Below, piece after piece: positions 1,921 to 38,355 of a stretch of DNA of 64,000 nt. The notes beneath the pieces are model-generated. The model did no database searches. It had not been told where the DNA came from and worked only from the letters and a program-made list of their open reading frames with translations. Each line of letters starts with the position of its first letter. Positions within the stretch are counted from its first letter, which is position 1. The DNA comes from Chitinophagales bacterium (GTDB lineage: Bacteria > Bacteroidota > Bacteroidia > Chitinophagales > JADIYW01). The position numbers and the translations under genes are program-made. The stretch spans positions 1,719 through 65,718 of the forward strand of contig DAORIK010000001.1 in the NCBI GenBank assembly GCA_035438465.1, written 5' to 3'.

Positions 1921-4900
1921 TTAAGGAGTGAGGGAGAATCGGAATGTAATGCCACCACGGTGTGTTTTTGTTGGATAGGATGCCAAAGTAGCAGGATTTG
2001 TTCTTCGGAAATCGTAGAACAAACGAACATTTAATTTATTATTGACAATATAGTCAATGGTAGCAGCTAAGGAGATTGTTTTTTGTCCACGCGTTGGTTC
2101 CGCAATATTCTGGTCTAAACGATAGTTAACAGTCTTGTCATCTCTGTAAGAGAAATCGGCACGCAGGTTGATATCGTTATTCAACGTAATTCGCTTACCT
2201 CTTATTTTAAAAGGAATTTTAAATTTTGCCAGTTTATAGCCGAGTGCTGCAACATATTCTGTAGTGCGTGTTTCCGTTAACCGGTAATCTAACAAACTTA
2301 ATCCGAGTGTACGGGATTTTTTAAATTCAAAATTTGTAATCAAACTATTTTTCCAGGAAATTTCTATGCCTAATAGGGGTGATAGCTGTTCGGTAATAGT
2401 TACTTGTGGAATGGAATAGTATGCGTAGTAATTTCCTGATAAGGAGTCGATGCGTTGCGGTACGTAAAATAAATCTTCGTTATAATAACCCGGTGTGTTT
2501 AAGTAATTCAAATTCGTGATATAAGAGCCGATACTGAACGTTGAATTGTACCCGTGTGTGATGTTGAAAGACGTAAATAATTTCTTTCCCCATTTTGTTT
2601 TGGCAAATCCGTTATAAGTTACACGCCAGTTAGGCATTGGAATTCCTTTCAGCGGATTCAAACGGACTTTATCCGGATTTTTCCCGGTGTATGCAGCAAT
2701 TAAGGAAGGCACTAACACATCTTGTGAAAATGGTCCGTAGCCTTCTTTAAAGTTTGGAAGTTTAATGCTGTCATTTATATAGATGTCATCAGAATTTGGA
2801 TTCTTATCACCAAATTTTTGAGAATATACTTCACGTAATTCCTGGAATTTATAAAATGCATTACTGAAATTATTTTCATCTACTTTACTAAAAATAGTTT
2901 TAAGCATTAAAAATGACATAGACATATTTCCATTCACCATAGGTGTTAGGTGCTCATAAGCTGAGTTTGCAGAAGTCGTTTTGAAGAATTCTGAGTAGGT
3001 TTCACCTTGAGTCTTCTGAAGTGAAATATCTACACGTAAATCTCTATATGGTTCCAGAGAAACTTTTAGGTTAAAGCTTTGTTGTTTTGTTTGAATAAAC
3101 TGATAGTTGATAGTTGTATCTTTTGAAATCAATCCCTTGGCAGCTATCGTACTTAGCCAGCTGGTATCTTTTTGGGCACCAAATAAAAATCCTGGACCGG
3201 GTGCATGTTGTTTAAAGTCTTCACCAAACAAAAGAGGAGTAGGCATAAATCCGGGTAATACAGTGGTGCGTTTTACATCATAGCTGATAGATGCGCGTTG
3301 CAACATCATTAGTGGGCGCATAACATAATCCAGTGCTGGATTTGCCGGCTCGGGAAGTTGCCTTTTTTCCAGTTTTAACTGGCGTAAATCATTTTTCAGC
3401 TGCTTCTTCTCATCTACTAATTTTTTAATATCTTCTTTTGTTTTGGAAGTATCTTTTTCCGCAATTTCTATATCCTCAATTTTTTTCTCAATATCTTCTT
3501 TCTTCTTGATGATTTTTGTTTTTGATAAATCATCTTGTTCTTTGTATTTTGAATAGGCATCAGCGTATTCCTGTTTTGTTTTTTTGAGGTCAGGCTGTGT
3601 ATATGGTTTCAGAAATTTTGATTTCTGATATAAACTCTTAAAATTAATATCAGCAGTAATCTGATAGTCCTGTCCGTTTTTTATTGTGTTCCCTAAACTG
3701 GTCAACCCTAAAGGAGCTGCAAGCCAAGAGTAAGTAGCTCCATACCGTGCCTTTACGTTCATCCAGTCCAAAGCAGGAAATAGTTGTAACGGTAAATTGT
3801 AGGATGCATTAAAGATATGATCATAACTTACATTTCTTCCGAATTTCCAGAAATTACGGCGAACAGTATCTTTCTTCTCCTTTGTATCTAAAGCACCGGC
3901 CGGCTCGTCTATGCGCGCTTTATTCGTTGCAGTGAAATCAACATTGATAGACTTTGTAATATTGTATTTAACACTCCAGAATCTGTCCCAGGTGAAATAT
4001 TTATCAAAGGTTGGTTTTATCTCTAAATCATCGCCACTGATGTTCCTGATTTTTTGATAGCCGTATTGTCTGTTTATGTCTGTTCTGAATGCTACCGAAT
4101 TAGGTTTTAAATTAAGGTTGAATTCTCTGATTGGTTTCAGATGGACACTGTTGTTTTTAACTTTTTTGAAAGGCTGCCATACAAGCGGTTTTGGAGAAAA
4201 ATTCCACCCGATAGAACCTCTGTGTTTTGTTATAACTTCTTTTTCAATAATTGGATTTCTTCTGTCGGTTTGAGTAAAGGCATAAGTGAAATTAAAATTC
4301 TCTACATCGTACACACGTGGTTGTTTTTCCGTATTGGTTCTTACTTTTTGTAAATTGGTAACGTTAATACTTTTAATAGTAGTAACATCCTGTGCTACAC
4401 GTTTGGTAGAATCAATCAGTTCTTTTTTTCTGTCTTTAGATAAATTGCCATCCGCTTCTATTACACTGAATTTATCTTTTAGTTTCACATCTAATTCATA
4501 GGGATCGTATTGCGGTGTACTAATAGACTGTGAGAATTGGGTGTAAACAGGGATTTTCAAACCTGCTTTTTCAGGTAACAAATTCCCGAGGTTTAAGTTG
4601 GCTGCAATGTCATACTGGTAATAGTTATCTCTGTATCGCTGATTAAGTCGTTGTTCTAAATCACCAAACCCGATGGTATGAATATTTCCTGCCATAATAA
4701 GGTTACCGAGATTACCAAGCTGCAAGTCTACTCTGCCTAATGCGGCCCATCCCCCTTGTTCGTCAAATCCGGACATCCGCAACTCATTTACCCAGATTTC
4801 AGCACATTTAGCAAGTCCGTCGTCAGTATCTTCATTTTCTCCTATAATTCTTTTTGGATTTTTTACTCCAATCATAAATACGGATGCCACCCCTAAATCA

Positions 4901-7900
4901 GGGTTGCCTTTTAAACTGATTTTTACACCATTGCCAAGAGTTACTTCGTAAGGTAATATTTGTGATGAATTACTAATGTTGCGTAGTTGCTTTATTTTAG
5001 TAAGACTGTCAAGTAAGATATTCATTTGGTTTGAATCCGGCCAGATTAAACTTCTGTCCAAATCACTTTCGGGATTATAATTTCCGGGCTGCGTTACTTT
5101 TAACGGTAGTTCATATTCATAATAATTATCTGTAAAGTCAGAACCGATTCGAATAAAGGCATGAATGTCATCGTTTTTTATAGGAAATAAACTGCCTCTG
5201 TCACCCGGATAATTTTCAGCATGGGTAAATAATTTTATGCGTTTGTAATTTCGCAAATCAAGATTTGTTACTTTAAAAACTGCCCGTGCATCACCATCCT
5301 GTAGTTCACAAACCTGTAAACTCATGGCTTGCTCATTTTGTAAAGCATTGTTATACCCGCTGATATTTTGTTCACGGATGATGCCAGGTGGTATTGCATA
5401 CGGAATTGGTAGTCGTCCGGAGTTCTCTTCCACGCTTACGGAAGTTACATTAAAGTCAGTATTGGTAGTTTCATCTCCCGGTAGTTGCTCACCCGGATTT
5501 AATAGAGATAAATCATATTTTCTCCATTGGTTTCTAACTAACCCGAATTGAGCCAGACGGAGGGTTACGCTGTCTGTAAAGTCTGATAATATCAGGCGAC
5601 AAAAACGAATGGAACGGAAATCAGAAATATTACCAACTCTGGATTCATATTCTTTAATCGGGATTTTTATTTGATACCAGTATGCATACTGATTGCCATC
5701 AATTAATGTTGAGTCTTTGCTGGCAACATATGGAGAGTTGTTCAGGAAATTTTCATCAAATGGAACTTTATACTGGAAATATTCTTCCGTTTCATTTAGA
5801 GTGTTATCATTGTTCAGGTCCTCATTATCAGGTTGTGTTTTTGCATTCCCATTTACGTTTCCGCCACTAAGATTATTAGAAGAGTTTCCCTGAGTATTTG
5901 AAAAATCCTTATAGCGTATGATAACACCGTCATCGCCGGTAAAGTTGCCATCTCTGTTAAATTTATAATTATCACCGGAAGGGTCGATGCTTGCTTTATC
6001 AAGCGCAATAGGATTTGAAACCAGCGTAGAAAGTTTGGTTAAGTAATTGGAAAAATAATTCTTTTCTGCATCATCGTCCAAACCATCCAAGCCTACATCT
6101 TGTTTTTTTATAACATCCGGGTCGGCATCAAAACTATTGGTTAATGCGTTCTGAATCGTAGGCGTTACACCCCAAGAAGAAGTATCAACTGTTGTACCTC
6201 CGTTAGGGCGGGGTAGTCCGTTCTCATATTGCTTTCTGGAATCCTTTAAAATATCTTCTGATAAGTTTCCTAACTGAATATATAAGTTACCTTTTCTATT
6301 GGCACCGGGAAACTGAAAAGGATCCAATACCCAGAATTGAATAAATTCTATATTAGCTGCTTCAAAATCGCTGGTACCATCAATAGTACGCATAATACCA
6401 CCCCACCGGGTTTCGGGATTATTTAATTTACCGTTTGCATTTATACCTTTTGAATAAGGAGTTGGCGATGTCTCATAATTGTAAGGTCCTCTTTCTTCAG
6501 GGAAATAAGATAAGTCCAATGTATAAAGAGGCGGATTGGTAATAGTTGAGTTCTGTCTGTTTTTAAAAACATCCTGCTCAAAATACTGATGAGTGTAAAT
6601 ATTGTTTCTGGTGGCTTCTGCTGTAGCACTGTTTAACGGGTTGGTGCCACCGCCACCGCCCTGAAAGATTGGATCAATGGAATACCATGATAGTTTTGCT
6701 CTGTTGAATCCATATGCTAAGCTATCGCTGATGCGCGCTTCCGGAAATTTTTCTACACCATAAATATTTGGCATTCCTTTAGGTGCAGAAGCCAAGGACC
6801 AGGTTAGATAGCTTCCTCGCAAATCGAAGGTGGTACTCGCTCCTTCAAAATCATCTACATACACTGTTCCTGCGTCATCAATGTTAATTGCTTTGGAATG
6901 ACCCGGTATAAAATAAGCTGCTTCTGCTGCAACCGTTATTTTGGAAGGTGCTTTGGTGTCCTGTGCTGTTATTTTATTAAATACTCTGGTTAATCCTTTT
7001 GATTCTGTTGCATAATTAATGTCTAATCCGATGATATTGTTTTTTACCGGATCATCATTGAAATTTACTTTCTGGGTAAATGGTCGCTCCGCAAGGCGCA
7101 TATGTGTTAACCCGATAGTAAAATTTTTGTTGACAGAATAATCTAATCTTGTTCCAAAGAGAGATTTATTCACTACACCAAACAGAATATTATTTTCAAA
7201 TTTAATATCAATAGGAATTCCTGAGTTTAATACACCCTGATTAATAATCACTACTTCACCAATCCCATAGTTGACGGTATAATCAACATTCTCTTTTAAC
7301 TGATTTCCACCGGCGCTGACACTTACAGAGCCTTGCGGTAAATTAAAAGCACCGGGCAGTCTGAATGTACTGTTATCTGTTCCTCTGTAGGAGCCTTTTA
7401 ATACGAACCGGTTAAACTCCGGGAATTGTTGCGCAGCAAACTTAGTGGTATCATACAAATACCGATATACATATTTTGCTGCTATGGCAGGATCTCCGAT
7501 TGCATTTGCGAGCGAGCTGCCGAAGGGTTCCAAAACCGGGAAATATATTTTCCCGTTTCTCGGGTTAATTGTAACATTTGGTATAAAGTCAAATCGTCCG
7601 TCATTTTGAGGGTCCAACTGATTATTGACATTATCGAGATTAAGAACTTTTAATAATTGCTGTCCGGTAATATTTCCTCCATCCGGCAAGTAACGTTTTT
7701 GTCCGCCACCCGGGTCGATATAATATATGTCAAAGAAAAACTGATCGGGACTTACATTAAAGGCACCTAAGGAATATACGTTTTTCATCATCAAATCCCA
7801 TATTGGCTCTACGGTTCTAACAGAAGTAGCTTTCAGCATTTTGAGTGCTAAAATCTGGTCTTTAGTTTTAGTGGTGTCTGCAAGAGGAGGTAAGTCAGAT

Positions 7901-9312
7901 GCAAACTCACCTAACTGATATACTTTTCCATTTACAGTATATTGTATGGCAACACCTAAAACCTCATCAGGGCGCAGCTGTTGATTTAATGAGATGTAGC
8001 CAAGTTGTGCATTGAATGAATATTCAGTAGTTGCTAATTTTCGTGCACTTACTTTTTCAAAATCATCGACTGCAAATAAATTGTTGCTTTCTAAGAAACT
8101 AATACACCTGCTTGGATCTCTGAAGTCCAGAGAATTTGCACTTTTGGTGATAATATTATATAGATTGTTTGAATTGCTTTCCGGATAAATTCCACCATTA
8201 CTGGTAATGGTAGATGTGTTATAGATTTTACTGGTTTCTCCCAAATCCTGAAAGGCAACAATTTCTCTTACTTCTTCTGTTTGTCTGGTTTTATTGGTTA
8301 CCCAAACTTCAATTCTGTTTATAACTGTTTGTGCACCGACAAAAGGCAATCTGCTCAAACTTTGTTCATAAGTATCTCTGAAATATTGTGCTATAAAAAA
8401 GTGTCTGTTGTCTTCGTACTCATCTGCTTTTATAGCAAACTTTTTTGTTTGTGCTCCGTTTTCTATCCTTACATTTTCTGTTTTGGATTTTTGCTGAGCT
8501 AATACATTTGTGATTGTTAGCCGACCAAATTTTAATTGTGTTTTTACACCAAACAAATTTTGTGGACCTTTGATAAGTGCACTTCGCAAGGGCATACTCA
8601 CGTTTCCAAATTCTAAAGCCTGAATGATATCATCTTCTTTACCTTTATAGCCTAACTTCAATTGATTTTCAAAAGCAAAACCTGATTTTGTGTTATAGTT
8701 GATTCCGAGTTTTAATTTATCACCAATAGATGCCTGCAGACCTAACTGAATATTCATATCAAAATCGAAGTTGATATTACGCCGCTGATTTTGGAGTAAA
8801 ACAGGATTGTCAATACGCTGGGAATTTACACCAATAGTTACATCTACGTTTCCTTGTGGTTTAATTTCGATTTTAGTACCACCCAAAAACCGGTTGAATA
8901 ATTCAGGACCCTGATACAGAAATGGTTGTTTGCTTTTGCGTTCTGCCAAGTCAATGGCTCTGGAGCGTTGCTGAAAATAGGTTTGTTCTGATTCCTGACT
9001 CGTATATTGTAAGTATTCATCATAAGTCATGTATGTTGGCGTTTTGTAATAATTATCGCCGATTTTTTCATACACAATAAATTTGTTGGTTTTGGGGTCG
9101 TATTCCACCTGTTTATTTACAATACCCGGGTCATTTAAATCAAGATTAGTGCTGGGTTTTGTAATCAGGAAGTCTGTGTTCCTGTCCTGAATTGGGTACT
9201 TCAGGTTTATTTTTGAACTATCAGTTTGAGCATAACTATCACTAATACTATACATAATAGCAAAAAACAATAGTATGCTTATGGGAGTCTTATGTATAGT
9301 TCTTCTCACCAA
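1921..9312 (-). CDS. sprA: type IX secretion system translocon / gliding motility protein SprA (Sov family)
   Basis: 2463-aa ORF with a TTG/GTG start followed by the signal peptide ...LLFFAIMYSISDSYAQ. Size, beta-rich composition and C-terminal beta-barrel-like end (ITFRFSLTP) match SprA. Position next to ruvA and gcvH fits the layout I recall for this region in other Bacteroidetes (from memory). Confidence 0.88.
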   Translation of the reverse strand: MVRRTIHKTPISILLFFAIMYSISDSYAQTDSSKINLKYPIQDRNTDFLITKPSTNLDLNDPGIVNKQVEYDPKTNKFIVYEKIGDNYYKTPTYMTYDEYLQYTSQESEQTYFQQRSRAIDLAERKSKQPFLYQGPELFNRFLGGTKIEIKPQGNVDVTIGVNSQRIDNPVLLQNQRRNINFDFDMNIQLGLQASIGDKLKLGINYNTKSGFAFENQLKLGYKGKEDDIIQALEFGNVSMPLRSALIKGPQNLFGVKTQLKFGRLTITNVLAQQKSKTENVRIENGAQTKKFAIKADEYEDNRHFFIAQYFRDTYEQSLSRLPFVGAQTVINRIEVWVTNKTRQTEEVREIVAFQDLGETSKIYNTSTITSNGGIYPESNSNNLYNIITKSANSLDFRDPSRCISFLESNNLFAVDDFEKVSARKLATTEYSFNAQLGYISLNQQLRPDEVLGVAIQYTVNGKVYQLGEFASDLPPLADTTKTKDQILALKMLKATSVRTVEPIWDLMMKNVYSLGAFNVSPDQFFFDIYYIDPGGGQKRYLPDGGNITGQQLLKVLNLDNVNNQLDPQNDGRFDFIPNVTINPRNGKIYFPVLEPFGSSLANAIGDPAIAAKYVYRYLYDTTKFAAQQFPEFNRFVLKGSYRGTDNSTFRLPGAFNLPQGSVSVSAGGNQLKENVDYTVNYGIGEVVIINQGVLNSGIPIDIKFENNILFGVVNKSLFGTRLDYSVNKNFTIGLTHMRLAERPFTQKVNFNDDPVKNNIIGLDINYATESKGLTRVFNKITAQDTKAPSKITVAAEAAYFIPGHSKAINIDDAGTVYVDDFEGASTTFDLRGSYLTWSLASAPKGMPNIYGVEKFPEARISDSLAYGFNRAKLSWYSIDPIFQGGGGGTNPLNSATAEATRNNIYTHQYFEQDVFKNRQNSTITNPPLYTLDLSYFPEERGPYNYETSPTPYSKGINANGKLNNPETRWGGIMRTIDGTSDFEAANIEFIQFWVLDPFQFPGANRKGNLYIQLGNLSEDILKDSRKQYENGLPRPNGGTTVDTSSWGVTPTIQNALTNSFDADPDVIKKQDVGLDGLDDDAEKNYFSNYLTKLSTLVSNPIALDKASIDPSGDNYKFNRDGNFTGDDGVIIRYKDFSNTQGNSSNNLSGGNVNGNAKTQPDNEDLNNDNTLNETEEYFQYKVPFDENFLNNSPYVASKDSTLIDGNQYAYWYQIKIPIKEYESRVGNISDFRSIRFCRLILSDFTDSVTLRLAQFGLVRNQWRKYDLSLLNPGEQLPGDETTNTDFNVTSVSVEENSGRLPIPYAIPPGIIREQNISGYNNALQNEQAMSLQVCELQDGDARAVFKVTNLDLRNYKRIKLFTHAENYPGDRGSLFPIKNDDIHAFIRIGSDFTDNYYEYELPLKVTQPGNYNPESDLDRSLIWPDSNQMNILLDSLTKIKQLRNISNSSQILPYEVTLGNGVKISLKGNPDLGVASVFMIGVKNPKRIIGENEDTDDGLAKCAEIWVNELRMSGFDEQGGWAALGRVDLQLGNLGNLIMAGNIHTIGFGDLEQRLNQRYRDNYYQYDIAANLNLGNLLPEKAGLKIPVYTQFSQSISTPQYDPYELDVKLKDKFSVIEADGNLSKDRKKELIDSTKRVAQDVTTIKSINVTNLQKVRTNTEKQPRVYDVENFNFTYAFTQTDRRNPIIEKEVITKHRGSIGWNFSPKPLVWQPFKKVKNNSVHLKPIREFNLNLKPNSVAFRTDINRQYGYQKIRNISGDDLEIKPTFDKYFTWDRFWSVKYNITKSINVDFTATNKARIDEPAGALDTKEKKDTVRRNFWKFGRNVSYDHIFNASYNLPLQLFPALDWMNVKARYGATYSWLAAPLGLTSLGNTIKNGQDYQITADINFKSLYQKSKFLKPYTQPDLKKTKQEYADAYSKYKEQDDLSKTKIIKKKEDIEKKIEDIEIAEKDTSKTKEDIKKLVDEKKQLKNDLRQLKLEKRQLPEPANPALDYVMRPLMMLQRASISYDVKRTTVLPGFMPTPLLFGEDFKQHAPGPGFLFGAQKDTSWLSTIAAKGLISKDTTINYQFIQTKQQSFNLKVSLEPYRDLRVDISLQKTQGETYSEFFKTTSANSAYEHLTPMVNGNMSMSFLMLKTIFSKVDENNFSNAFYKFQELREVYSQKFGDKNPNSDDIYINDSIKLPNFKEGYGPFSQDVLVPSLIAAYTGKNPDKVRLNPLKGIPMPNWRVTYNGFAKTKWGKKLFTSFNITHGYNSTFSIGSYITNLNYLNTPGYYNEDLFYVPQRIDSLSGNYYAYYSIPQVTITEQLSPLLGIEISWKNSLITNFEFKKSRTLGLSLLDYRLTETRTTEYVAALGYKLAKFKIPFKIRGKRITLNNDINLRADFSYRDDKTVNYRLDQNIAEPTRGQKTISLAATIDYIVNNKLNVRLFYDFRRTNPATLASYPTKTHRGGITFRFSLTP

Positions 9313-31137: not shown

Positions 31138-32001
31138 ATGCAAATCCATCTTATCAGAAATAAAATTATTGATTATCCATCAGGTTCTGCTTTAGAATTT
31201 TATAACAATATATTATATGTTGTCGGCGATGATGTAAATTATATTTTGTGTTTAGATGATGCATGGAATGAAATTAATCGACTGAAATTATTTGAATACG
31301 ATAGCGTCCGTATTCCTAAGCCAGAAAAACCTGATCTGGAATGTGCTACAATCATTGGGGATATGTTGTATGTAGCCGGTTCCGGCTCCAAATCGCCGCA
31401 ACGTGATGTAGCCTTTCTTGTCAATTTATCGGATAAGAAAATAAAAAGAATAAGTACCGCTGCATTTTATTCTATTTTCAGAGACAGAAACCTGATAAGA
31501 GAGATGAATATAGAAGGTTTTACAGATTGTAAAGATAAGCTCTTGTTTTTTAATCGCGGCAATACGCAACAGCCCAATCAATTAATTATTACTGATTATA
31601 ACATTTTAAAGAAACAATTTCCTTCTTCTTTTAAAGTAATGCCGGTAAGTATTGGAGCATTAAATAATATTTCTTTGGGAGTTTCCGGTGCGTGTTACCA
31701 TGAAAAAGACGATATTTTATTATTAACTGCATCTGCTGAAGATACAAATAATGCTTATGACGACGGAGAAATTATTGGCAGCACAATTGGTATAACATAT
31801 AATGCCTATCAAAAATTAAGCAACAAGGAATTTATTATTGATGAATCAACAGAACTGGAAAAAATTCATCCTGTTTTTGAAAAACAAAAGATAGAATCTG
31901 TTTGTATCACCAAACATACCGAAAGAAAATACACTTGTGTGTTGGTTGCAGATAACGATAACGGGAAATCAGAACTATTTGAAATAGAAGTTCAGATATA
32001 A
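31138..32001 (+). CDS. hypothetical protein (beta-rich, possibly propeller-like)
   Basis: 287-aa ORF with no signal peptide and no family recognised. Confidence 0.45.
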   Translation: MQIHLIRNKIIDYPSGSALEFYNNILYVVGDDVNYILCLDDAWNEINRLKLFEYDSVRIPKPEKPDLECATIIGDMLYVAGSGSKSPQRDVAFLVNLSDKKIKRISTAAFYSIFRDRNLIREMNIEGFTDCKDKLLFFNRGNTQQPNQLIITDYNILKKQFPSSFKVMPVSIGALNNISLGVSGACYHEKDDILLLTASAEDTNNAYDDGEIIGSTIGITYNAYQKLSNKEFIIDESTELEKIHPVFEKQKIESVCITKHTERKYTCVLVADNDNGKSELFEIEVQI

Positions 32002-32005
32002 AAAA

Positions 32006-32038
32006 ATCTTTTCCAAAGTTAAAAACTTTGGAAAAGAT
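32006..32038. terminator. bidirectional hairpin terminator between convergent genes
   Basis: ATCTTTTCCAAAGTT (32006-32020) pairs perfectly with AACTTTGGAAAAGAT (32024-32038). There is an A-run upstream. Confidence 0.7.
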
Positions 32039-32046
32039 AATCGTCG

Positions 32047-34683
32047 TTATTTCTTTAAATCCAAAGCGTTGTTTATTATGTATGCAAGATGCGCTCTGTG
32101 AGCTTGTGTTGATGCGTCGCTGCCGTATGGTGTTTCCATCCACGATAAAATACGCTGAACTTCACCAAATGCCGCTGATTTAGAAGTATAACTATAGGAT
32201 GATTTTGTATCTATTATATTTAATAATCTTCCGACATATTCTTCCTGCAAATTCTGACGAATAGTGGAAACAGATGCGCCCAAATCTTCCATAAAAATAC
32301 CATTGGTAACATCCTTGAGCATGGCATTCACACTATATTTATTGCCGTAATATTTACTGTCTGTTAAACGTTGCATTACTGTATTGTGTAATAATTGATC
32401 TAATACAGCACGCTGTATATTCAATACTCTATCGTGAATTTTGGGGTCTTCACTTTCTTTTCTGAAATCATAGCCTCTGCGTTGCATTTGCAGATAAGCA
32501 TAAATTTCATTCGGCACATTAAATGCACTTTTTGAAAAGGCATATTTGGATATGGCCTGCATAGCTCGTTTCTGTTCTGATAAAGGAACAACCGTAAAAG
32601 GCTTGCCTGAGGTATCCTGACCGACAAAATTTCTATTTACATAAACACCGCCAATATATCTGTCAATTACATTTAAACTGCGGGCATAATGGCCTGAAAG
32701 AATTAAATAAGCATTGCGCAGTTCGTGATATGATTTGTCCTGTGTGCTATATTTTGTTAGCAGTTTAGGTAATGCCTCATTTACCATCTTAATATTCCCT
32801 AAAGCATATCCAATTGCATCATTAGACATATCATAAATATTTGCACTCGGATCGATTCCTTTCCCAACAGAGCGCATATCATCTGCATCGTTTTTAAAAC
32901 GGTGCTCTTTTTTTACAGATTCAGACAGAATTTTTTGCAATGCAGCTTTTTCTTCTGCTTCATCTTCAATATTTATGTAACCATATTGAATAGCCCATTT
33001 ATCATAAGGACCCGGCTTAATATCAAAATACAAACCTTGTTTTGTTTTGTCTGTTGAGATATTGGGGATTGTATAATCCATTACAGAAGCTGTTAATCCT
33101 ACCGTTGCACCTAGAACAGGATCTTGCATTTGTTCTATGCTATGTAATTGTGAAGCAGTAAAATTATGCATCAACCCAAAAGTATGTCCTACTTCATGAA
33201 GTACCAAGTCATATAAAGCCTGTTTGATAAATTCATCTTTATCCATATCTGAAAATCCGTAAGCATTTAGCAGTTGTGTACCATACAAAATATTTTGATG
33301 CATGCCTTCACCGAATACACAATTTTCATAATTTAAATCAGTAGCAGGTTGCAAATTATCTAAAGCAGCAATTTCATATAATTTTTCCAATGGCAATCGG
33401 TTTGTCAGATACACAAATTCCAGCATAATGTCAGCACCAATGATTTCGCCGGTCCGCGGGTTTACAAAGCTTGGTCCATAGCCGCCATAAGGAGGTCTTG
33501 GAGAAGAAGTCCAGCGAATTACATTGTATCTGATGTCTTCCGCTTCCCAGCTTGCTGTATCCGGTTGTTCAAAACATTCAACAGCATTTTTAAATCCTGC
33601 AGATTCAAAGGCTTCATTCCAAGCGAGTACTGCATTGCGTATAATTGGCCTGAATTCTTTTGGAGTTGTTTTTTCAATCCACCATGTAATGGGCTTTACA
33701 GGCTCAGAGAGTTTGTCATTCGGATTTTTCTTTTCAAGATTCCATCTATGAATTAAATCCTTCCAAGGAACAGCATTGGTGGAAGTCTGATCTGTAATTT
33801 TTTCTATGAAATAACCAACCCGTGGGTCGTCATATCTTGGTTTGAATTTATTTTGAGGAACTTCAATTAAACTGTGCTGCATTTTTACAGAAATAAAACG
33901 TGCATCTGTTACTTCATCCGTGCCGGTATTTACAGGTAATGGATTTTCATAAATATATTCTACGGAAACATCTGTATTTTGAGGGTAATCTTTTACAGCA
34001 ATATATTTTGATTTTTTACTGCTGAGCGAGCCCATAGAAAATGCATCCGATTTATCCGAAGGTGATTTGGATGGTTTAATTTGTGTGATATTTTCACCGA
34101 GGAATAAATTATCAGCATCTATCAGATATGTTCTTTTCTTAGTTTTATCATCTGTACTTAGTGCAGCAATTTTTTCGGAAAGAAACAGAGGTTGATTAAT
34201 ATTAGCGTTTTCAGCTTTGCTTAATTCGTTATTTTTATCAAAATAATAACTGGTGTTTTGTAAAACAAAATCAATTCTGTCAAAATATCTTTGTATGGTA
34301 AATACAGAATTGTCTTTATAGCCGCCACGGGCATAACCTGCATCTAAAACACCATCAAGCACATATGCGAAGTAAATATATTCCTTGCCAATTTTATCTT
34401 CAGAAATTTCCAGGTAGGTTTTTCCGGTAGTTGTATCCTGATAAACATTGAAAAGCCCGCTGTATTTTCTGCATTTTTCAGTAACTTCTTTAATGGTTTT
34501 AAACTGTGGTTTATTGTCTTTTTTTGAGATAGTATCCTTTGGAGGTGTTTTTACTGAATCTGTCATGGTTTTAACAGCGACAGTATCATCTTCTTTTTTC
34601 TTTTTTTCTTTTTTAGCATACATATTTGCCGTCATAAAAAGGACAGCAGTTATAAGAATTAAACCTTGTTTGGGTGACTTCAT
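32047..34683 (-). CDS. secreted zinc-dependent metalloprotease (DUF5117/DUF4953-type)
   Basis: 878 aa with a signal peptide and zincin motif HEVGHTFGLMHNF. Confidence 0.8.
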   Translation of the reverse strand: MKSPKQGLILITAVLFMTANMYAKKEKKKKEDDTVAVKTMTDSVKTPPKDTISKKDNKPQFKTIKEVTEKCRKYSGLFNVYQDTTTGKTYLEISEDKIGKEYIYFAYVLDGVLDAGYARGGYKDNSVFTIQRYFDRIDFVLQNTSYYFDKNNELSKAENANINQPLFLSEKIAALSTDDKTKKRTYLIDADNLFLGENITQIKPSKSPSDKSDAFSMGSLSSKKSKYIAVKDYPQNTDVSVEYIYENPLPVNTGTDEVTDARFISVKMQHSLIEVPQNKFKPRYDDPRVGYFIEKITDQTSTNAVPWKDLIHRWNLEKKNPNDKLSEPVKPITWWIEKTTPKEFRPIIRNAVLAWNEAFESAGFKNAVECFEQPDTASWEAEDIRYNVIRWTSSPRPPYGGYGPSFVNPRTGEIIGADIMLEFVYLTNRLPLEKLYEIAALDNLQPATDLNYENCVFGEGMHQNILYGTQLLNAYGFSDMDKDEFIKQALYDLVLHEVGHTFGLMHNFTASQLHSIEQMQDPVLGATVGLTASVMDYTIPNISTDKTKQGLYFDIKPGPYDKWAIQYGYINIEDEAEEKAALQKILSESVKKEHRFKNDADDMRSVGKGIDPSANIYDMSNDAIGYALGNIKMVNEALPKLLTKYSTQDKSYHELRNAYLILSGHYARSLNVIDRYIGGVYVNRNFVGQDTSGKPFTVVPLSEQKRAMQAISKYAFSKSAFNVPNEIYAYLQMQRRGYDFRKESEDPKIHDRVLNIQRAVLDQLLHNTVMQRLTDSKYYGNKYSVNAMLKDVTNGIFMEDLGASVSTIRQNLQEEYVGRLLNIIDTKSSYSYTSKSAAFGEVQRILSWMETPYGSDASTQAHRAHLAYIINNALDLKK

Positions 34684-34741
34684 TTTTAGTTAATTTATTT
34701 GTGCAAAAATACCAATTTTAAATTGATTTTATATAAAGAAT

Positions 34742-34771
34742 AAAACCATCCTGAATTAGTAGGATGGTTTT
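34742..34771 (-). terminator. hairpin terminator at the end of the metal operon
   Basis: AAAACCATCCT (34742-34752) pairs with AGGATGGTTTT (34761-34771). On the minus strand it is followed by ATTCTTTAT. Confidence 0.6.
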
Positions 34772-34795
34772 ATAAAATATTACAGTAAACTGAGA

Positions 34796-35128
34796 TTATC
34801 TTTCATATTGACAGCACTTTGGCAGCTTGCCGTAGTCTTCTATTGTGGCTTTAAACTTTTGCGTGTCATAACCTGCTTTTGCAATGTTTTGTTCAACCTG
34901 ATCAATCGAAACTTTAGTTGGCACAAATGAAACAGTAAGGATATGTGTATCCTCATTCCATACAGCTGTCTTTAAACCTGCTGTCTTAGCTGCCTTTTCA
35001 ATTCTTTCTTTGCACATATCACAATTGCCTGAAACAATAAAAGAGGCTTTTGTTATTACTTCTTTTGCGAATGTCATTAAGCTAAAAAAGAAGAAAAGTA
35101 GGTTAAGGATTAGAATATTTTTCTTCAT
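34796..35128 (-). CDS. periplasmic heavy-metal-associated (HMA) domain protein
   Basis: Signal peptide, then a ferredoxin-like HMA fold with metal loop SGNCDMCKERIEKA. C-terminal PKCCQYER. Confidence 0.8.
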   Translation of the reverse strand: MKKNILILNLLFFFFSLMTFAKEVITKASFIVSGNCDMCKERIEKAAKTAGLKTAVWNEDTHILTVSFVPTKVSIDQVEQNIAKAGYDTQKFKATIEDYGKLPKCCQYER

Positions 35129-35223
35129 TTATTTAAAAATTATTTGCTTTTATCCATTTCCATGCCACATTAAGAACACTTTCAGGCTTTATCTGTAGCA
35201 TATCTTTTTTGCATTGGACAAAC

Positions 35224-35505
35224 TTAACTACCCGCTTCCTTTGTTTTTACAGAAACAGAATCTATAATTTTGTTAGATTTTTCTCCATCTTTTTTACAAC
35301 AAGCATCTTCTTTTTTGCTGCAAGATTTTCCTTCTTCTGCTTTACATTTGTCGCTGAATTTGTCGCAACAAGCTGAATCTTTGCAGCAACTTGCTTTTTC
35401 ACATGTCGAGCCGTCTTTACATTTTTTGTTATGACAGGCTGTAAATCCAATTAATGTAACTATCATCACCATAATAACAGTTACGATTGATTTTGTGTTG
35501 TTCAT
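35224..35505 (-). CDS. Cys-rich small lipoprotein (metallothionein-like)
   Basis: Lipobox GFTAC. I count 11 Cys in the ~70-residue mature part, including three CC pairs (ASCCKDSACCDK...DACCKKD). Confidence 0.6.
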   Translation of the reverse strand: MNNTKSIVTVIMVMIVTLIGFTACHNKKCKDGSTCEKASCCKDSACCDKFSDKCKAEEGKSCSKKEDACCKKDGEKSNKIIDSVSVKTKEAGS

Positions 35506-35526: not shown

Positions 35527-37716
35527 TTAATTAATACTAATTCTAAAGCCACCATATACGCTTGCACCCATTACCGGTGCATATACCTGATAGGTATCAA
35601 AAAGTGTGCTAAAAGGTGTACCTAATATAACATTTTTTTGTCTGTAATTTGTTATATTTTCACAGCCGGCAAAAATTTCAGCATGTTTGAAATATTTTAA
35701 TATTTGCGCATTTAATAATACATAACGTGGTGTGTAACGTTTATCAGCTTCACCATCAAAACTATTCGGTAGTCTTCTTCTTCCATTTATGCTGGTGTTA
35801 ATATCAAACTGCCATTGCTGATTGGGTGTTTTATAGCTTAATACTACCAACCCTTTATTGAGCGCTTGTAATGGCTTTTGCAATAAAATTCCATGATAAG
35901 TGGAACGCACATCTTCAAGTCGATACGCCATTTTAAAGTCCAGTCCTTTTAATACTTCAAAGTTGAGCTCAATTAATAAACTGTTTGAAAATGATTTGCC
36001 ATGCAGATTTGAAATGGTTGCAGTGGCGTCCGCGTTGTCAATATCAATAATTGCTTGTTTTAGGAAATCAGTCCGGAAAAAATCAACAGCTAAACTTCCT
36101 TCGCGATTAAACAAATTAAATTTTTGGGTTAATGATAACCCGTAATTCCAGGCTAGTTCCTTAGTCGGATTTTCCTGAAAGATAATGCTTCTTGAGCTTG
36201 CCAGTAAGGACTGATTTTCCGTTAATAAATTAGGCACTCTAAAGCCGCTGCCGGCTGCAATGCGCAATGTGGTCTTATCTGTTAGTGAAAACTTAGCATG
36301 TACTCTCGGATTAAATTGAAAACCTGCGCGAGTATGATAATCACCGCGAATACCTGTGACGATAGTAATTTTTGAATTCCATTTGAACGTGTACTCGGCA
36401 AAAAGTCCGGGCACGAAATCATTTCGGTAGAATTGAAGTGAGTCTAATTTTTCATCTATTTTATCATACACAAAATTTATACCACCAACCAGAATATGAT
36501 TATCATTTTTAACTGTAGTCTGATATAAAATATTTCCGGTAAATGTTGCCTGTTTCGTATCAAAATTTTTCTTTCCATAATTAGATTTCTGCTGATGATA
36601 TACACCGGAAAATTGAGTACCTAAACTATTCTCTTCTGTAAAAATATACCCGGTTTTTGCAAAAGCTTCCACACGTTTGGTATTGATGTTGATGCCAAAT
36701 AATGGAATTGAATCTGAATGGTGATGTGTACTATGATTGATTTGACCGGCGATACGATTTTCACTCAATACTTTTATCATATACTGTCCTTCTGTTTTAT
36801 CTGAATGATAATTCCAGCGATTCAGAATATTGTATTGCTTCATCAACGGCTGATCCAGAAATCCATCGTGGTTCATATCTTGCTTTGCAGGTACAAAAGC
36901 CCCGTTTGCCATCAGCATTGTTCCGAGTTTTGGATTGATTTTATGATTAACCAGCAGGTTTGTTTCGATACGTACATTTTGATTGGCAAACATGTCGAAG
37001 AATAATTTAGCAGAGTCATTAAAACTACTTTTAAATTCCACATTCATAGAACCGGAAATACCTTCATAGCTGTTCTTTACAGAAGGAACACCTTTGGAAA
37101 CGGAGATAGACTTCATCCAGGGTGCAGGAATATTATCTAAACCAAAAGTAGAAGTCAGTCCACGTAAAATCGGAATTCCTTCCAATAGATTTTGCACATA
37201 GATTCCGCTAAGTCCTAAGAGCCTTATTTCTTTTGCACCCGTAACGGCATCACTGTAATTTACATCGGCAGAAGCATTTGCCTGGAAGCTTTCTGATAAA
37301 TTACAACAGGCCGCTTTTTTTAATTCTCCGGCTTCTATCTTTTCCGTCTTTATCGGATTAAGAGTTGAAATAAAATTGGTTTGACGCTTTCCGTTTATTT
37401 TTACTTCGCTTAGTTGAATCTCAGGCTCCAATTGAATTTTTATATCGGTAATCTTATTTATCAGAATTGTATCTGTCTGATAACCTACATAAGTTATTAT
37501 AATTGAATTGGGCAGTAGCTCAATTGTATCTAATTGGGCTACTCCAAATTCATCAGACGTAGCACCGATAATGGAATTTATCCATTGTACATTGGCACCA
37601 TATAAAAACTCTTTCGTCTTTTTATCGGTTACGGTTATTTTTATTTTTTGCTGGCTGAATACATATTGACTTATAAAAAACGTCAATAGTAAAAACCAGA
37701 AATCCAGTTTTTTCAT
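35527..37716 (-). CDS. TonB-dependent receptor with an N-terminal carboxypeptidase-regulatory-like domain
   Basis: 729 aa with a signal peptide and a CarbopepD_reg-like beta-sandwich. The plug region contains KKAACCNLSESFQANASADVNYSDAVTGAKEIRLLGL. C-terminal beta-barrel ends GGFRISIN. Confidence 0.85.
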   Translation of the reverse strand: MKKLDFWFLLLTFFISQYVFSQQKIKITVTDKKTKEFLYGANVQWINSIIGATSDEFGVAQLDTIELLPNSIIITYVGYQTDTILINKITDIKIQLEPEIQLSEVKINGKRQTNFISTLNPIKTEKIEAGELKKAACCNLSESFQANASADVNYSDAVTGAKEIRLLGLSGIYVQNLLEGIPILRGLTSTFGLDNIPAPWMKSISVSKGVPSVKNSYEGISGSMNVEFKSSFNDSAKLFFDMFANQNVRIETNLLVNHKINPKLGTMLMANGAFVPAKQDMNHDGFLDQPLMKQYNILNRWNYHSDKTEGQYMIKVLSENRIAGQINHSTHHHSDSIPLFGININTKRVEAFAKTGYIFTEENSLGTQFSGVYHQQKSNYGKKNFDTKQATFTGNILYQTTVKNDNHILVGGINFVYDKIDEKLDSLQFYRNDFVPGLFAEYTFKWNSKITIVTGIRGDYHTRAGFQFNPRVHAKFSLTDKTTLRIAAGSGFRVPNLLTENQSLLASSRSIIFQENPTKELAWNYGLSLTQKFNLFNREGSLAVDFFRTDFLKQAIIDIDNADATATISNLHGKSFSNSLLIELNFEVLKGLDFKMAYRLEDVRSTYHGILLQKPLQALNKGLVVLSYKTPNQQWQFDINTSINGRRRLPNSFDGEADKRYTPRYVLLNAQILKYFKHAEIFAGCENITNYRQKNVILGTPFSTLFDTYQVYAPVMGASVYGGFRISIN

Positions 37717-37768: not shown

Positions 37769-38206
37769 TTAACAACGAAAGATTTGTAATTTTTGAGAAG
37801 AAGGTTGAAGTGCTGACTTTATATGATAAAGTTTGTTTGGCGGATGCAATCCTGAATAATAATTTTCAAAAATTTGATGATTGAACGGAGACAGATTATT
37901 GGTAAATAATTTAGAATTAAATTGTTTTTCTAATGGTTTTATTTGCAACTGCTTTGCTGTAAAACCCTCAACGGAAAGCTTGCTGAATATTTGAGTGTGA
38001 GTACAGCAATCATCTTTCTTCTTATAACCCATCTTTTCACAACAAGGAGAAAGAGGTGCTTCATTTTCACAGGTCGGGTCAGTAAATAAGCAAAAGCTAC
38101 GCGTATTCGAAGTATTACAAATATGTTCAAAGGCAGCTATGCCATTACTCGCTGTAAAAACAAGCATAGCTAATAATAATGCCGATGTATTAATTTTGTA
38201 TTTCAT
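37769..38206 (-). CDS. small exported His/Cys-rich protein (resembles the HYC_CC_PP-type family as I remember it)
   Basis: The ATG at 38206 gives MKYKINTSALLLAMLVFTASNGIAAFEHICNTS... with motifs HIC, PCCEKM, DDCCTH and HPP. The track start at 38257 is TTG. Confidence 0.5.
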   Translation of the reverse strand: MKYKINTSALLLAMLVFTASNGIAAFEHICNTSNTRSFCLFTDPTCENEAPLSPCCEKMGYKKKDDCCTHTQIFSKLSVEGFTAKQLQIKPLEKQFNSKLFTNNLSPFNHQIFENYYSGLHPPNKLYHIKSALQPSSQKLQIFRC

Positions 38207-38355
38207 TTTCTTAATTCCAAAATACACATTCAGAATAGTATTCAAATTTACTATCAATTATTGGTTACTGCTGCTGAAAAATGTTTATATATAGTTAAAA
38301 TTCTTTTCGGTAAAATGTTCAGAACTTATTTTACCTTTAATTAAGTTTGGTACAA

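Follow-up and report, generated by a model that had tools for sequence, protein, structure and literature searches.

A reduced allele of a cysteine-rich repeat lipoprotein, with an HMBD remnant, in a receptor module of uncultured Chitinophagales

Does a small cysteine-rich open reading frame (ORF), lodged between the gene of a TonB-dependent receptor and that of a secreted HMA-domain protein in a Chitinophagales bacterium, encode an exported buffer of metal ions, or is it what is left of a gene that is being lost? The ORF consists of 93 codons and a TAA stop, starts with ATG, and occupies positions 35224-35505 on the minus strand of a stretch of 64,000 nucleotides (nt) from assembly GCA_035438465.1 (contig DAORIK010000001.1, positions 1,719 to 65,718 of the forward strand). 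We refer to this whole stretch as the window, and positions are those of the window unless a related locus is named. A first-pass annotation, made from the letters alone, had described the product as an exported, metallothionein-like lipoprotein that could serve as a surface or periplasmic metal buffer, or as a hand-off partner of the receptor. Comparison with its relatives indicates that the window gene is a reduced, degenerate allele, of uncertain function, of a family of CCDKC-repeat lipoproteins. We put the probability at about one in two that its product is a tethered thiolate buffer of lowered capacity for a soft metal, most likely Cu(I).

The family was recovered in two ways. Firstly, a word-indexed homology search gave ten relatives, with E-values from 5e-50 to 2e-11. 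Secondly, an exhaustive HMMER search among 1.84 billion proteins gave 23 representatives with E<1e-3, which share one architecture. The lipobox is followed by a conserved block, C-[HKN]-N-K-K-C-K-D-G-E-K-C-E-K-A-S-C-C-K-D, and then by a varying number of copies of the repeat CCDKC-x-x-x-C-T-x-x-x-K-CCDKC-K-x-G-E-E-K-x-CC in a matrix of Lys, Asp and Glu. The cysteines stand in CC, CxxC and Cx4-7C motifs, the repeat region has no aromatic or hydrophobic core residues (the window protein has one exception, F50), and it closes with a terminal [AE]CCKKD element. The window protein carries this signature, CHNKKCKDGSTCEKASCCKD ... ACCKKD. The repeats are clearer in the protein than in the DNA, where Tandem Repeats Finder barely picks them up.

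Two types of family members can be distinguished by what follows the repeats. In type A members (P0002, P0004, P0007 and P0008) a short linker leads to a C-terminal HMBD (PF19335), which scores 48-53 bits (gathering score 23.6) and keeps the residues C-P-M-H ... C-x-x-C-G-M; the full-length, HMBD-bearing relatives contain 26-31 Cys. Type B members end a few residues past CCKKDS[TV]K, have no HMBD and contain 5-24 Cys. When the window ORF and a full-length relative were scanned, neither Pfam (E<=0.1) nor NCBIfam had a family that matched the Cys-rich part, and in a PDB sequence search with the full-length relative as query the sole match was the HMBD of Legionella CopA (LpCopA; 8OVL). From these searches, we conclude that this is a small family that had not been described before and that is restricted to one clade of uncultured Chitinophagales.

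The window copy is smaller than its closest full-length relatives in two respects. The first is a 126-nt (42-codon) in-frame deletion, whose junction was placed at 35343-35354 (minus strand) by DNA and codon alignments with these relatives. The junction lies within GCGACAAATGTA, a direct repeat that in the related locus L013 stands at both ends of the deleted segment in the form GCGACAA[A/G]TGTA, which points to a slippage or recombination event. Compared with L011/P0002 and L013 (receptor 94% identical), the deletion removes 15 Cys of the repeat array. Two further cysteines that are invariant in the family have been replaced in the window protein, one by Phe (C50F) and one by Ser (C63S).

The second is the loss of the HMBD. 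A decayed copy of this domain (PF19335) is present at 35140-35226 on the minus strand, in frame with the ORF, and its homology continues through stop codons, the read-through translation being ...KEAGS*VCPMQKRYATDKA*KCS*CGMEMDKSK* (asterisks mark stops). The stops within the remnant are a TAA at 35224-35226 in place of a Tyr codon, a TGA at 35182-35184 in place of Gly, and a TAA at 35170-35172 in place of Lys; in addition, the metal-site His of the CPMH motif is Gln. With the stops masked, the remnant scores 23.2 bits against Pfam HMBD (E = 6.7e-5), below the gathering score. The window protein itself has no intact HMBD, since its ORF ends ahead of the domain, and the 95-nt spacer between the lipoprotein and HMA genes is what remains of it. 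The three stops are identical in six metagenome loci that encode exactly the same protein and that come from at least five independent samples, activated sludge included. This indicates a fixed allele and rules out sequencing error as the source of the stops. Rescue of the HMBD by read-through or recoding is ruled out as well, because there are three stops, of two different kinds, and because the metal-site His and a conserved Gly have been lost; the other genes of the window terminate normally.

Loss of the HMBD is not peculiar to the window. In a neighbour-joining tree of the receptors, HMBD-bearing forms are found on deep and shallow branches alike, and by sequence comparison the ancestral chain is one that ended in a C-terminal HMBD. 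The tree implies at least three independent losses of the domain, namely in the clade of L015-L018 and L020, in L029 as compared with its sister L022, and in the window as compared with its sister L013; in L023 the whole lipoprotein gene has been lost. A visible remnant is found only in the window, the other HMBD-less loci having a gap of 12-26 nt to the HMA gene. The window copy is mainly of interest as a snapshot of this process: the locus is a natural example of domain loss in progress, in which a nonsense mutation is accompanied by a recognisable in-frame remnant, and it also illustrates repeat-driven variation in the size of a predicted metal-binding protein. Plasticity of this kind is also seen between close relatives with near-identical HYC_CC_PP proteins (the first gene of the module, see below), where L029 encodes a lipoprotein of 72 aa with 7 Cys and no HMBD (5318-5536) and L022 one of 165 aa with 28 Cys and an HMBD (7222-7719). 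In L010 (5778-8768; JGI contig Ga0558120_01413, 131 kb), frameshifts split the receptor into parts of 510 and 245 aa and leave a lipoprotein of 87 aa with the HMBD and HMA out of frame; these are probably assembly or long-read errors, and P0003 and P0005 are probably artefactual truncations.

What remains is nevertheless an unusual protein. The 93-aa product, MNNTKSIVTVIMVMIVTLIGFTACHNKKCKDGSTCEKASCCKDSACCDKFSDKCKAEEGKSCSKKEDACCKKDGEKSNKIIDSVSVKTKEAGS, has Cys at positions 24, 29, 35, 40, 41, 46, 47, 54, 62, 69 and 70. The eleven cysteines counted in the first-pass annotation therefore include Cys24 of the lipobox, and ten thiols would be free because that of Cys24 would be acylated. All eleven fall within a core of 47 residues, 24-70 (35296-35436, minus strand), with CC pairs at 40/41, 46/47 and 69/70, so that the predicted mature protein of 70 aa is 16% Cys overall and 23% Cys in the core. 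Residues 71-93 (KKDGEKSNKIIDSVSVKTKEAGS; 35227-35295, minus strand) form a Cys-free tail that in the relatives is the linker to the HMBD. Among the 150 window ORFs of at least 60 aa, none has a larger fraction of Cys than the present one; the mean is 0.9% in window ORFs of at least 200 aa, and the probability of finding at least 10 Cys in 69 residues is 7e-10, i.e. the enrichment is not due to chance. By its sequence, the mature protein falls within the operational metallothionein class (small, Cys in CC, CxC or CxxC, few aromatics), as had been proposed. The statement that the Cys-rich part lacks aromatic residues needs one correction: it contains F50, which turns CCDKC into CCDKF and is a derived Cys-to-Phe replacement, because every relative has Cys at this position. 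Conservation of the ORF, on which the first-pass annotation had made its proposal depend, is borne out by the E-values of its relatives and by the exact 93-aa protein on eight metagenome contigs with identical synteny; one variant, P0001, differs from it at a single tail residue.

The product is predicted to be a Sec/signal-peptidase-II lipoprotein, which agrees with the earlier assignment. We applied a rule of the PROSITE PS51257 type, which asks for a charged n-region, an uncharged h-region and the lipobox [LIVMFWSTAG]2-[LIVMFYSTAGCQ]-[AGS]-C with the Cys at 15-35. The N-terminus MNNTKSIVTVIMVMIVTLIGFTA-C24 conforms to it, with K5 within the first seven residues, an uncharged h-region from S6 to F21, and G-F-T-A-C24, as do 33 of the 38 family sequences. 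The signal peptide (residues 1-23, beginning with the n-region MNNTK) is encoded at 35437-35505, and the codon of Cys24, the predicted lipidated mature N-terminus, which is invariant in the family alignment, at 35434-35436, both on the minus strand. In Bacteroidota, lipoproteins destined for the cell surface carry an export signal with two acidic residues after a Lys or polar residue at positions +2 to +5, as in C-X-K-(D/E)2, SDDDD or SDDFE (PMC5080379). Residues +2 to +6 of the window protein read H-N-K-K-C, without the K-(D/E)2 signal, and throughout the family the corresponding residues are rich in Lys and Asn (KNNCK, NNKKC and similar) and the signal is likewise absent. The lipoprotein is thus expected to remain at the outer membrane facing the periplasm; of the two placements that had been considered, surface or periplasmic, this favours the latter and speaks against the former.

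As to structure, AlphaFold2 gave the window protein a predicted local distance difference test (pLDDT) score below 50 throughout the Cys-rich core, with no confident fold and, at low confidence, no helices beyond the signal peptide. The mean pLDDT was 47-48 for both the window protein and a full-length relative, whose HMBD reached 66-78 with beta strands. No fold search was run on these models, because low-confidence models give meaningless matches. According to these models the Cys-rich chain is probably natively unfolded, and the lack of a predicted fold fits a chain that becomes ordered only around metal.

Which metal this might be is suggested by the genes that adjoin the module in its relatives. 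A CopA-type P1B ATPase with an HMA domain and two HMBDs follows the lipoprotein gene directly in L021 (7711-9162) and L033 (7710-10205), and scores 575 bits against TIGR01511 (cutoff 397). A CueO-like multicopper oxidase with a C-terminal sorting domain of the type IX secretion system adjoins the module in L037, L041 and L061, the last of which also has a DUF3347, and a CusA/CzcA pump of the resistance-nodulation-division type and its adaptor lie just upstream in L013 (42-4401). The ATPase, the oxidases and the pump belong to the relatives and are not in the window itself. The HMBD points in the same direction. The nuclear magnetic resonance structure of the N-terminal domain of LpCopA (8OVL) shows a three-stranded sheet with a rubredoxin-knuckle CPxCGM; Met44, Cys59 and Met61 of this HMBD are ligands of Ag(I) and presumably also of Cu(I), and the domain resembles the N-terminal domain of periplasmic SilB (PMC11970713). 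Because of the copper-type neighbours in relatives and the type of HMBD, Cu(I) is the most likely metal. Thus, the metal-handling role proposed in the first-pass annotation stays plausible through the HMBD-fused relatives and the copper and heavy-metal neighbours, but the truncation, the contraction and the HMBD remnant in the spacer had been overlooked.

The history of the window copy can be read from the comparison with its relatives. Recombination between repeats took out 42 codons, two more conserved Cys were replaced, and a mutation of Tyr to stop cut off the HMBD, which is now decaying neutrally in the spacer before the HMA gene. For the product, we envisage the following mechanism. Anchored beside the receptor on the periplasmic side of the outer membrane, the lipoprotein would hold soft metal ions by its thiolates, Cu(I) being the likeliest; these ions would arrive either through the receptor or by being pumped into the periplasmic space. 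It would buffer this metal and pass it to, or receive it from, the CxxC and CC sites of the HMA chaperone. The module might thereby serve uptake, for example to metallate cuproenzymes that are periplasmic or secreted by the type IX system, or else protection. The remaining window product, with ten free thiols and no HMBD, would probably still be made, and would be a buffer of lower capacity, equivalent to the natural HMBD-less members.

Several points weigh against this reading. Firstly, the window copy has lost some 60% of its Cys together with the one metal-binding domain that could be recognised, and the loss of family-invariant Cys (C50F, C63S) is a sign of relaxed constraint. Secondly, on the window branch the retained ORF has accumulated 11 non-synonymous against 5 synonymous changes, and the hypergeometric estimate for an ORF that has been kept open (p ~0.012) is based on small counts. 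Thirdly, the link to copper comes from the neighbours of only about 6 of the approximately 47 related loci, and a His-rich loop of the receptor (described below) and the Cys chemistry are just as compatible with Zn(II), Cd(II) or Hg(II). Finally, the periplasm of an aerobe is oxidising, so that the cysteines could be present as disulfides and not as thiolates.

The first two of these points lead to the alternative that survives best, although we consider it clearly less likely than a tethered buffer: the 93-codon ORF may be a non-functional relic that has not yet been hit by a stop or frameshift, the receptor, HMA and HYC_CC_PP proteins being sufficient as they are in most Bacteroidota. The 42-codon deletion, the nonsense mutation, the two lost invariant Cys and the 11:5 ratio all agree with a dying gene. 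So does its dispensability, the gene being absent from L023 and from all distant loci, as well as the repeated shrinkage in the family with its independent HMBD losses. However, the retained ORF and the remnant have not evolved alike. Relative to L013, the retained part differs at 30 of 279 nt (10.8%) and the remnant at 18 of 87 nt (20.7%), i.e. the former has changed about half as fast per nucleotide. There is no stop among the 93 retained codons, against three among the 29 of the remnant, even though the retained part is rich in the stop-prone codons AAA (Lys), TGT/TGC (Cys) and GAA (Glu). The values of dN/dS against L013 were 0.04 for the receptor, 0.04 for the met-zincin encoded downstream of the module, 0.16 for the HMA protein, 0.27 for the retained lipoprotein ORF and 0.73 for the HMBD remnant (stops excluded); with four outgroups, each of the 14 remnant substitutions that could be polarised mapped to the window branch, 13 being non-synonymous. 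Signal peptide, lipobox and the best conserved block, CHNKKCKDG..CEKASCCKD, are nearly intact, the ORF is intact in the independent samples (at least five) with P0001 as the sole variant, and the retained architecture resembles that of the natural type B members. Judging from these comparisons, constraint on the retained ORF is apparently relaxed, not gone. It should be noted that dS of the lipoprotein gene against L013 is about 0.30, below the 0.50-0.84 of its neighbours; the small sample, codon constraints of the repeats or gene conversion could account for this low value.

A second, improbable alternative is that the lipoprotein caps the receptor at the cell surface and hands over a metal or chelate, in the way of SusD, BtuG, XusB or HmuY. 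The order of receptor and then small lipoprotein, here with a gap of 21 nt, is typical of such pairs in Bacteroidota (background in PMC6143338 and PMC13142918) and is that of SusCD, BtuBG and XusAB, and the His-rich loop of the receptor goes with the lipoprotein-bearing clade. However, SusD, BtuG, XusB and HmuY are folded, carry an acidic export signal and are surface-exposed, whereas the window protein has no predicted fold and, at +2 to +6, lacks the two acidic residues of the export signal (PMC5080379). Moreover, free thiolates on the surface of an aerobic cell would oxidise, elsewhere the HMBD occurs in proteins of the cytoplasm and the periplasm (PMC11970713), and most receptors of the family function without the lipoprotein.

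We regard it as similarly improbable that the cysteines form disulfides, such that the product would be a small disulfide-knotted lipoprotein with a structural or redox-buffering role and without metal cargo, the HMBD of its relatives being the sole metal site. Sec export into an oxidising compartment and the even number (10) of free Cys would agree with this. On the other hand, the number and spacing of Cys vary freely among close relatives (5 to 31 Cys, with in-frame gain and loss of repeats), which is typical of metal-thiolate sponges and not of folds defined by disulfides; at the level of the family the Cys-rich part is without hydrophobic core residues or aromatics, AlphaFold2 predicts no fold, and the chain is fused to, and adjoins, dedicated soft-metal domains.

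That the ORF is not a gene at all, but a chance or shadow frame in a low-complexity, A-rich region that keeps several frames open, can be practically dismissed, as the signal peptide, lipobox and HMBD fusion are conserved solely in the Cys frame. The first-pass annotation had pointed to a 62-aa ORF in an alternative frame (35262-35450). This ORF exists in the window, with a TTG start, but it fails as a coding alternative: its frame is disrupted by stops in L013, L022 and L007, and in pairwise comparisons among the relatives the substitutions at the first, second and third codon positions of the Cys frame were 4/2/20 (against L022), 11/5/26 and 13/9/23. Because the alternative frame is broken in relatives and substitutions concentrate at third positions, the Cys frame is the coding frame, and the 62-aa ORF is a compositional shadow. 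On the opposite strand, long ORFs also cover the Cys-rich region (54-55 aa at 35209-35434, plus strand, in the window; 96-97 aa at 7272-7633, minus strand, in L013). They stay open because codons for Cys, Lys, Asp and Glu yield no stops in reverse. In L014, L018 and L024 a greedy gene caller chose such a shadow over the real gene.

To return to the tethered buffer, its setting is a module of four genes, all on the minus strand, in the order HYC_CC_PP, receptor, lipoprotein and secreted HMA protein, followed by a terminator-like hairpin. The first gene (37769-38206) encodes a protein of the HYC_CC_PP family (NF047658; 28.0 bits against a cutoff of 28); an ATG at 38206 fits the MKYK start of its homologues, the mechanical ORF running on to a TTG at 38257. 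The receptor gene (35527-37716) encodes a CarboxypepD_reg-like N-terminal domain, a plug and a barrel, and 21 nt separate its stop from the start of the lipoprotein gene that follows. The secreted HMA-domain protein (34796-35128) has a signal peptide, a GNCDMC site and a C-terminal P-K-CC-QYER (PKCCQYER); it scores 29 bits against Pfam HMA (cutoff 24.8), and its nearest solved structures are the HMA domains of CopA. In a scan by consensus, the hairpin was found at 34740-34773 (minus strand), 3' of the HMA gene, and none between the lipoprotein and HMA genes. A scan for sigma-70 promoters returned 24 sites against 29 expected by chance, but Bacteroidota promoters differ from that consensus.

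We scanned the receptor against 185,579 species genomes and obtained 49 loci, all from uncultured Bacteroidota, the nearest being metagenome-assembled genomes of Chitinophagales. The receptor adjoins the HMA protein in approximately 44 of 47 related loci, and HYC_CC_PP in most. The position of the lipoprotein between receptor and HMA protein, as first annotated, recurs in 12 close-clade loci; similar Cys-rich lipoproteins beside this receptor family in other genomes, which the first-pass annotation had suggested looking for, were thus found. The lipoprotein is missing from L023 and from about 30 distant loci that keep the receptor, HMA and HYC_CC_PP genes. It is confined to a clade with receptor identity of at least 72%, which suggests a lineage-specific accessory; judging by gene content, a module of HYC_CC_PP, receptor and HMA protein that is widely conserved in Bacteroidota has here received the lipoprotein gene as an accessory insert. 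In the literature that we searched, nothing was found on this module, on the function of HYC_CC_PP or on the Cys-rich lipoprotein family.

Vicinal cysteines occur in every component of the module. In the receptor, the pair C137-C138 (37303-37308) belongs to the motif AACCNLSESF, where the plug begins; all 40 aligned receptors have the pair, and in an alignment with CirA the motif falls on the usual 'NL.d.L' plug helix. The HYC_CC_PP protein has two CC pairs. Every listed HMA partner, including those of L013-L061, has a CxxC and a C-terminal P-x-CC, with endings such as CCQY, CCKKGxVCxDKK and CCQKP; the wording 'ACCKK' is shared by the ends of HMA partners and the lipoprotein repeats. Besides, M281, H461 and H473 of the receptor are conserved in more than 85% of the 40 aligned sequences, and residues 328-335 (36712-36735) form the His-rich loop, HSTHHHSD. 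This loop is variable in form and is found only in the lipoprotein-bearing receptor clade and a few others (L044, L046 and L047), being absent from most distant relatives; going by its sequence, it could mark a site for a divalent metal. A profile of 25 receptors matched only generic CirA/FepA/PfeA barrels and SusC N-domains in the PDB, not OprC, and allows no inference on the ligand. Two sets of copper receptors from the literature were considered and set aside: the CrtA family is proteobacterial with unrelated operon content, and a copper survey of Bizionia points only to an OprC-like receptor.

A wider and more tentative proposal, which we consider possible but rather doubtful, is that vicinal Cys pairs (the receptor CC, the CxxC and P-x-CC of the HMA protein, and the two CC of HYC_CC_PP) form a Bacteroidota relay by which a thiophilic metal (copper being the best candidate) crosses the envelope. 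To this relay, one clade of Chitinophagales would have added, as a buffer of high capacity, a periplasmic metallothionein with a lipid anchor, the first of its kind, which was ancestrally fused to an HMBD. Its gene would be dispensable and driven by its repeats to the point of expanding, contracting and losing its HMBD time and again, with one such loss in progress at the present locus. The four small genes offer a handle on TonB-dependent transport of soft metals in Bacteroidota.

Downstream of the module there follow, in the window as in most loci of the close clade, a DUF5117/DUF4953 met-zincin of 878 aa (32047-34683) and a DUF6929 protein (31138-32001). These appear to be separate transcription units because of terminator-like hairpins at 34740-34773 and 32006-32038. 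A very long ORF of 2463 aa is found at the left end of the window (1921-9312, minus strand), and in a survey of the rest of the window only housekeeping genes, and no more metal genes, were seen.

How, then, does the lipoprotein compare with known systems? PcoE/SilE and CusF are small, partly disordered periplasmic buffers of Cu(I) and Ag(I) that work beside transport systems; they are soluble and use Met and His ligands. The window protein is unrelated to them in sequence, would be tethered to the membrane and would use Cys thiolates. In the Mer system a thiophilic metal is handed over at vicinal CC pairs, those of MerT and MerA, in cooperation with the secreted HMA protein MerP. Models of MerTP and MerP match the HMA protein of the window weakly, all NCBIfam scores being far below the cutoffs; by contrast with Mer, there is no MerA, MerT or MerR at the locus, and the neighbours in relatives are of the copper type. 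With HMBD proteins such as LpCopA (8OVL) and SilB, the full-length relatives share the domain and its key residues, and the window keeps only a remnant. However, known HMBDs are appended to a pump for regulation or sensing and do not terminate a metallothionein-like lipoprotein. A paper on APE1/PCC1 that cites PF19335 was not used, as it describes a ferredoxin-like MxCxxC protein.

A precedent in a Gram-negative envelope is Csp1 of Methylosinus trichosporium, a Tat-exported, Cys-lined store of many Cu(I) ions, which demonstrates that extracytoplasmic storage of copper by thiolates is feasible (PMC7558416). The window protein would parallel it as an exported, Cys-based store. Csp1 is a pre-folded, tetrameric four-helix bundle exported via Tat, whereas the window protein has a Sec/signal-peptidase-II lipobox and no predicted helices in its Cys-rich part; it has neither a Pfam match nor a twin-arginine motif that would place it among the Csp proteins.

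The bacterial metallothioneins SmtA/BmtA (PF02069) and mycobacterial MymT are likewise small, very rich in Cys and poor in aromatics, with CC, CxC and CxxC motifs and folding expected only around metal-thiolate clusters (PMC7558416). However, these proteins are cytoplasmic and have no signal peptide, whereas the window protein is predicted to be Sec-exported and lipid-anchored; SmtA, moreover, has a zinc-finger-like fold with His ligands, in contrast to the in-frame repeats and ancestral HMBD fusion found here. There was no match to PF02069 at E<=0.1, and no SmtA/BmtA protein was among the exhaustive profile matches, so that there is no kinship in sequence. The first-pass annotation was thus right that export is unusual for a metallothionein, as far as SmtA/BmtA and MymT are concerned, but an exported Cys-rich copper store is not unprecedented, as Csp1 illustrates (PMC7558416). 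Characterised bacterial metallothioneins are few and cytoplasmic, and both the buffering of soft metals in the periplasm and the uptake of copper across the outer membrane are poorly understood. If the reading as a tethered buffer is true, a lipid-anchored, thiolate-rich periplasmic protein would represent a new solution to periplasmic metal buffering.

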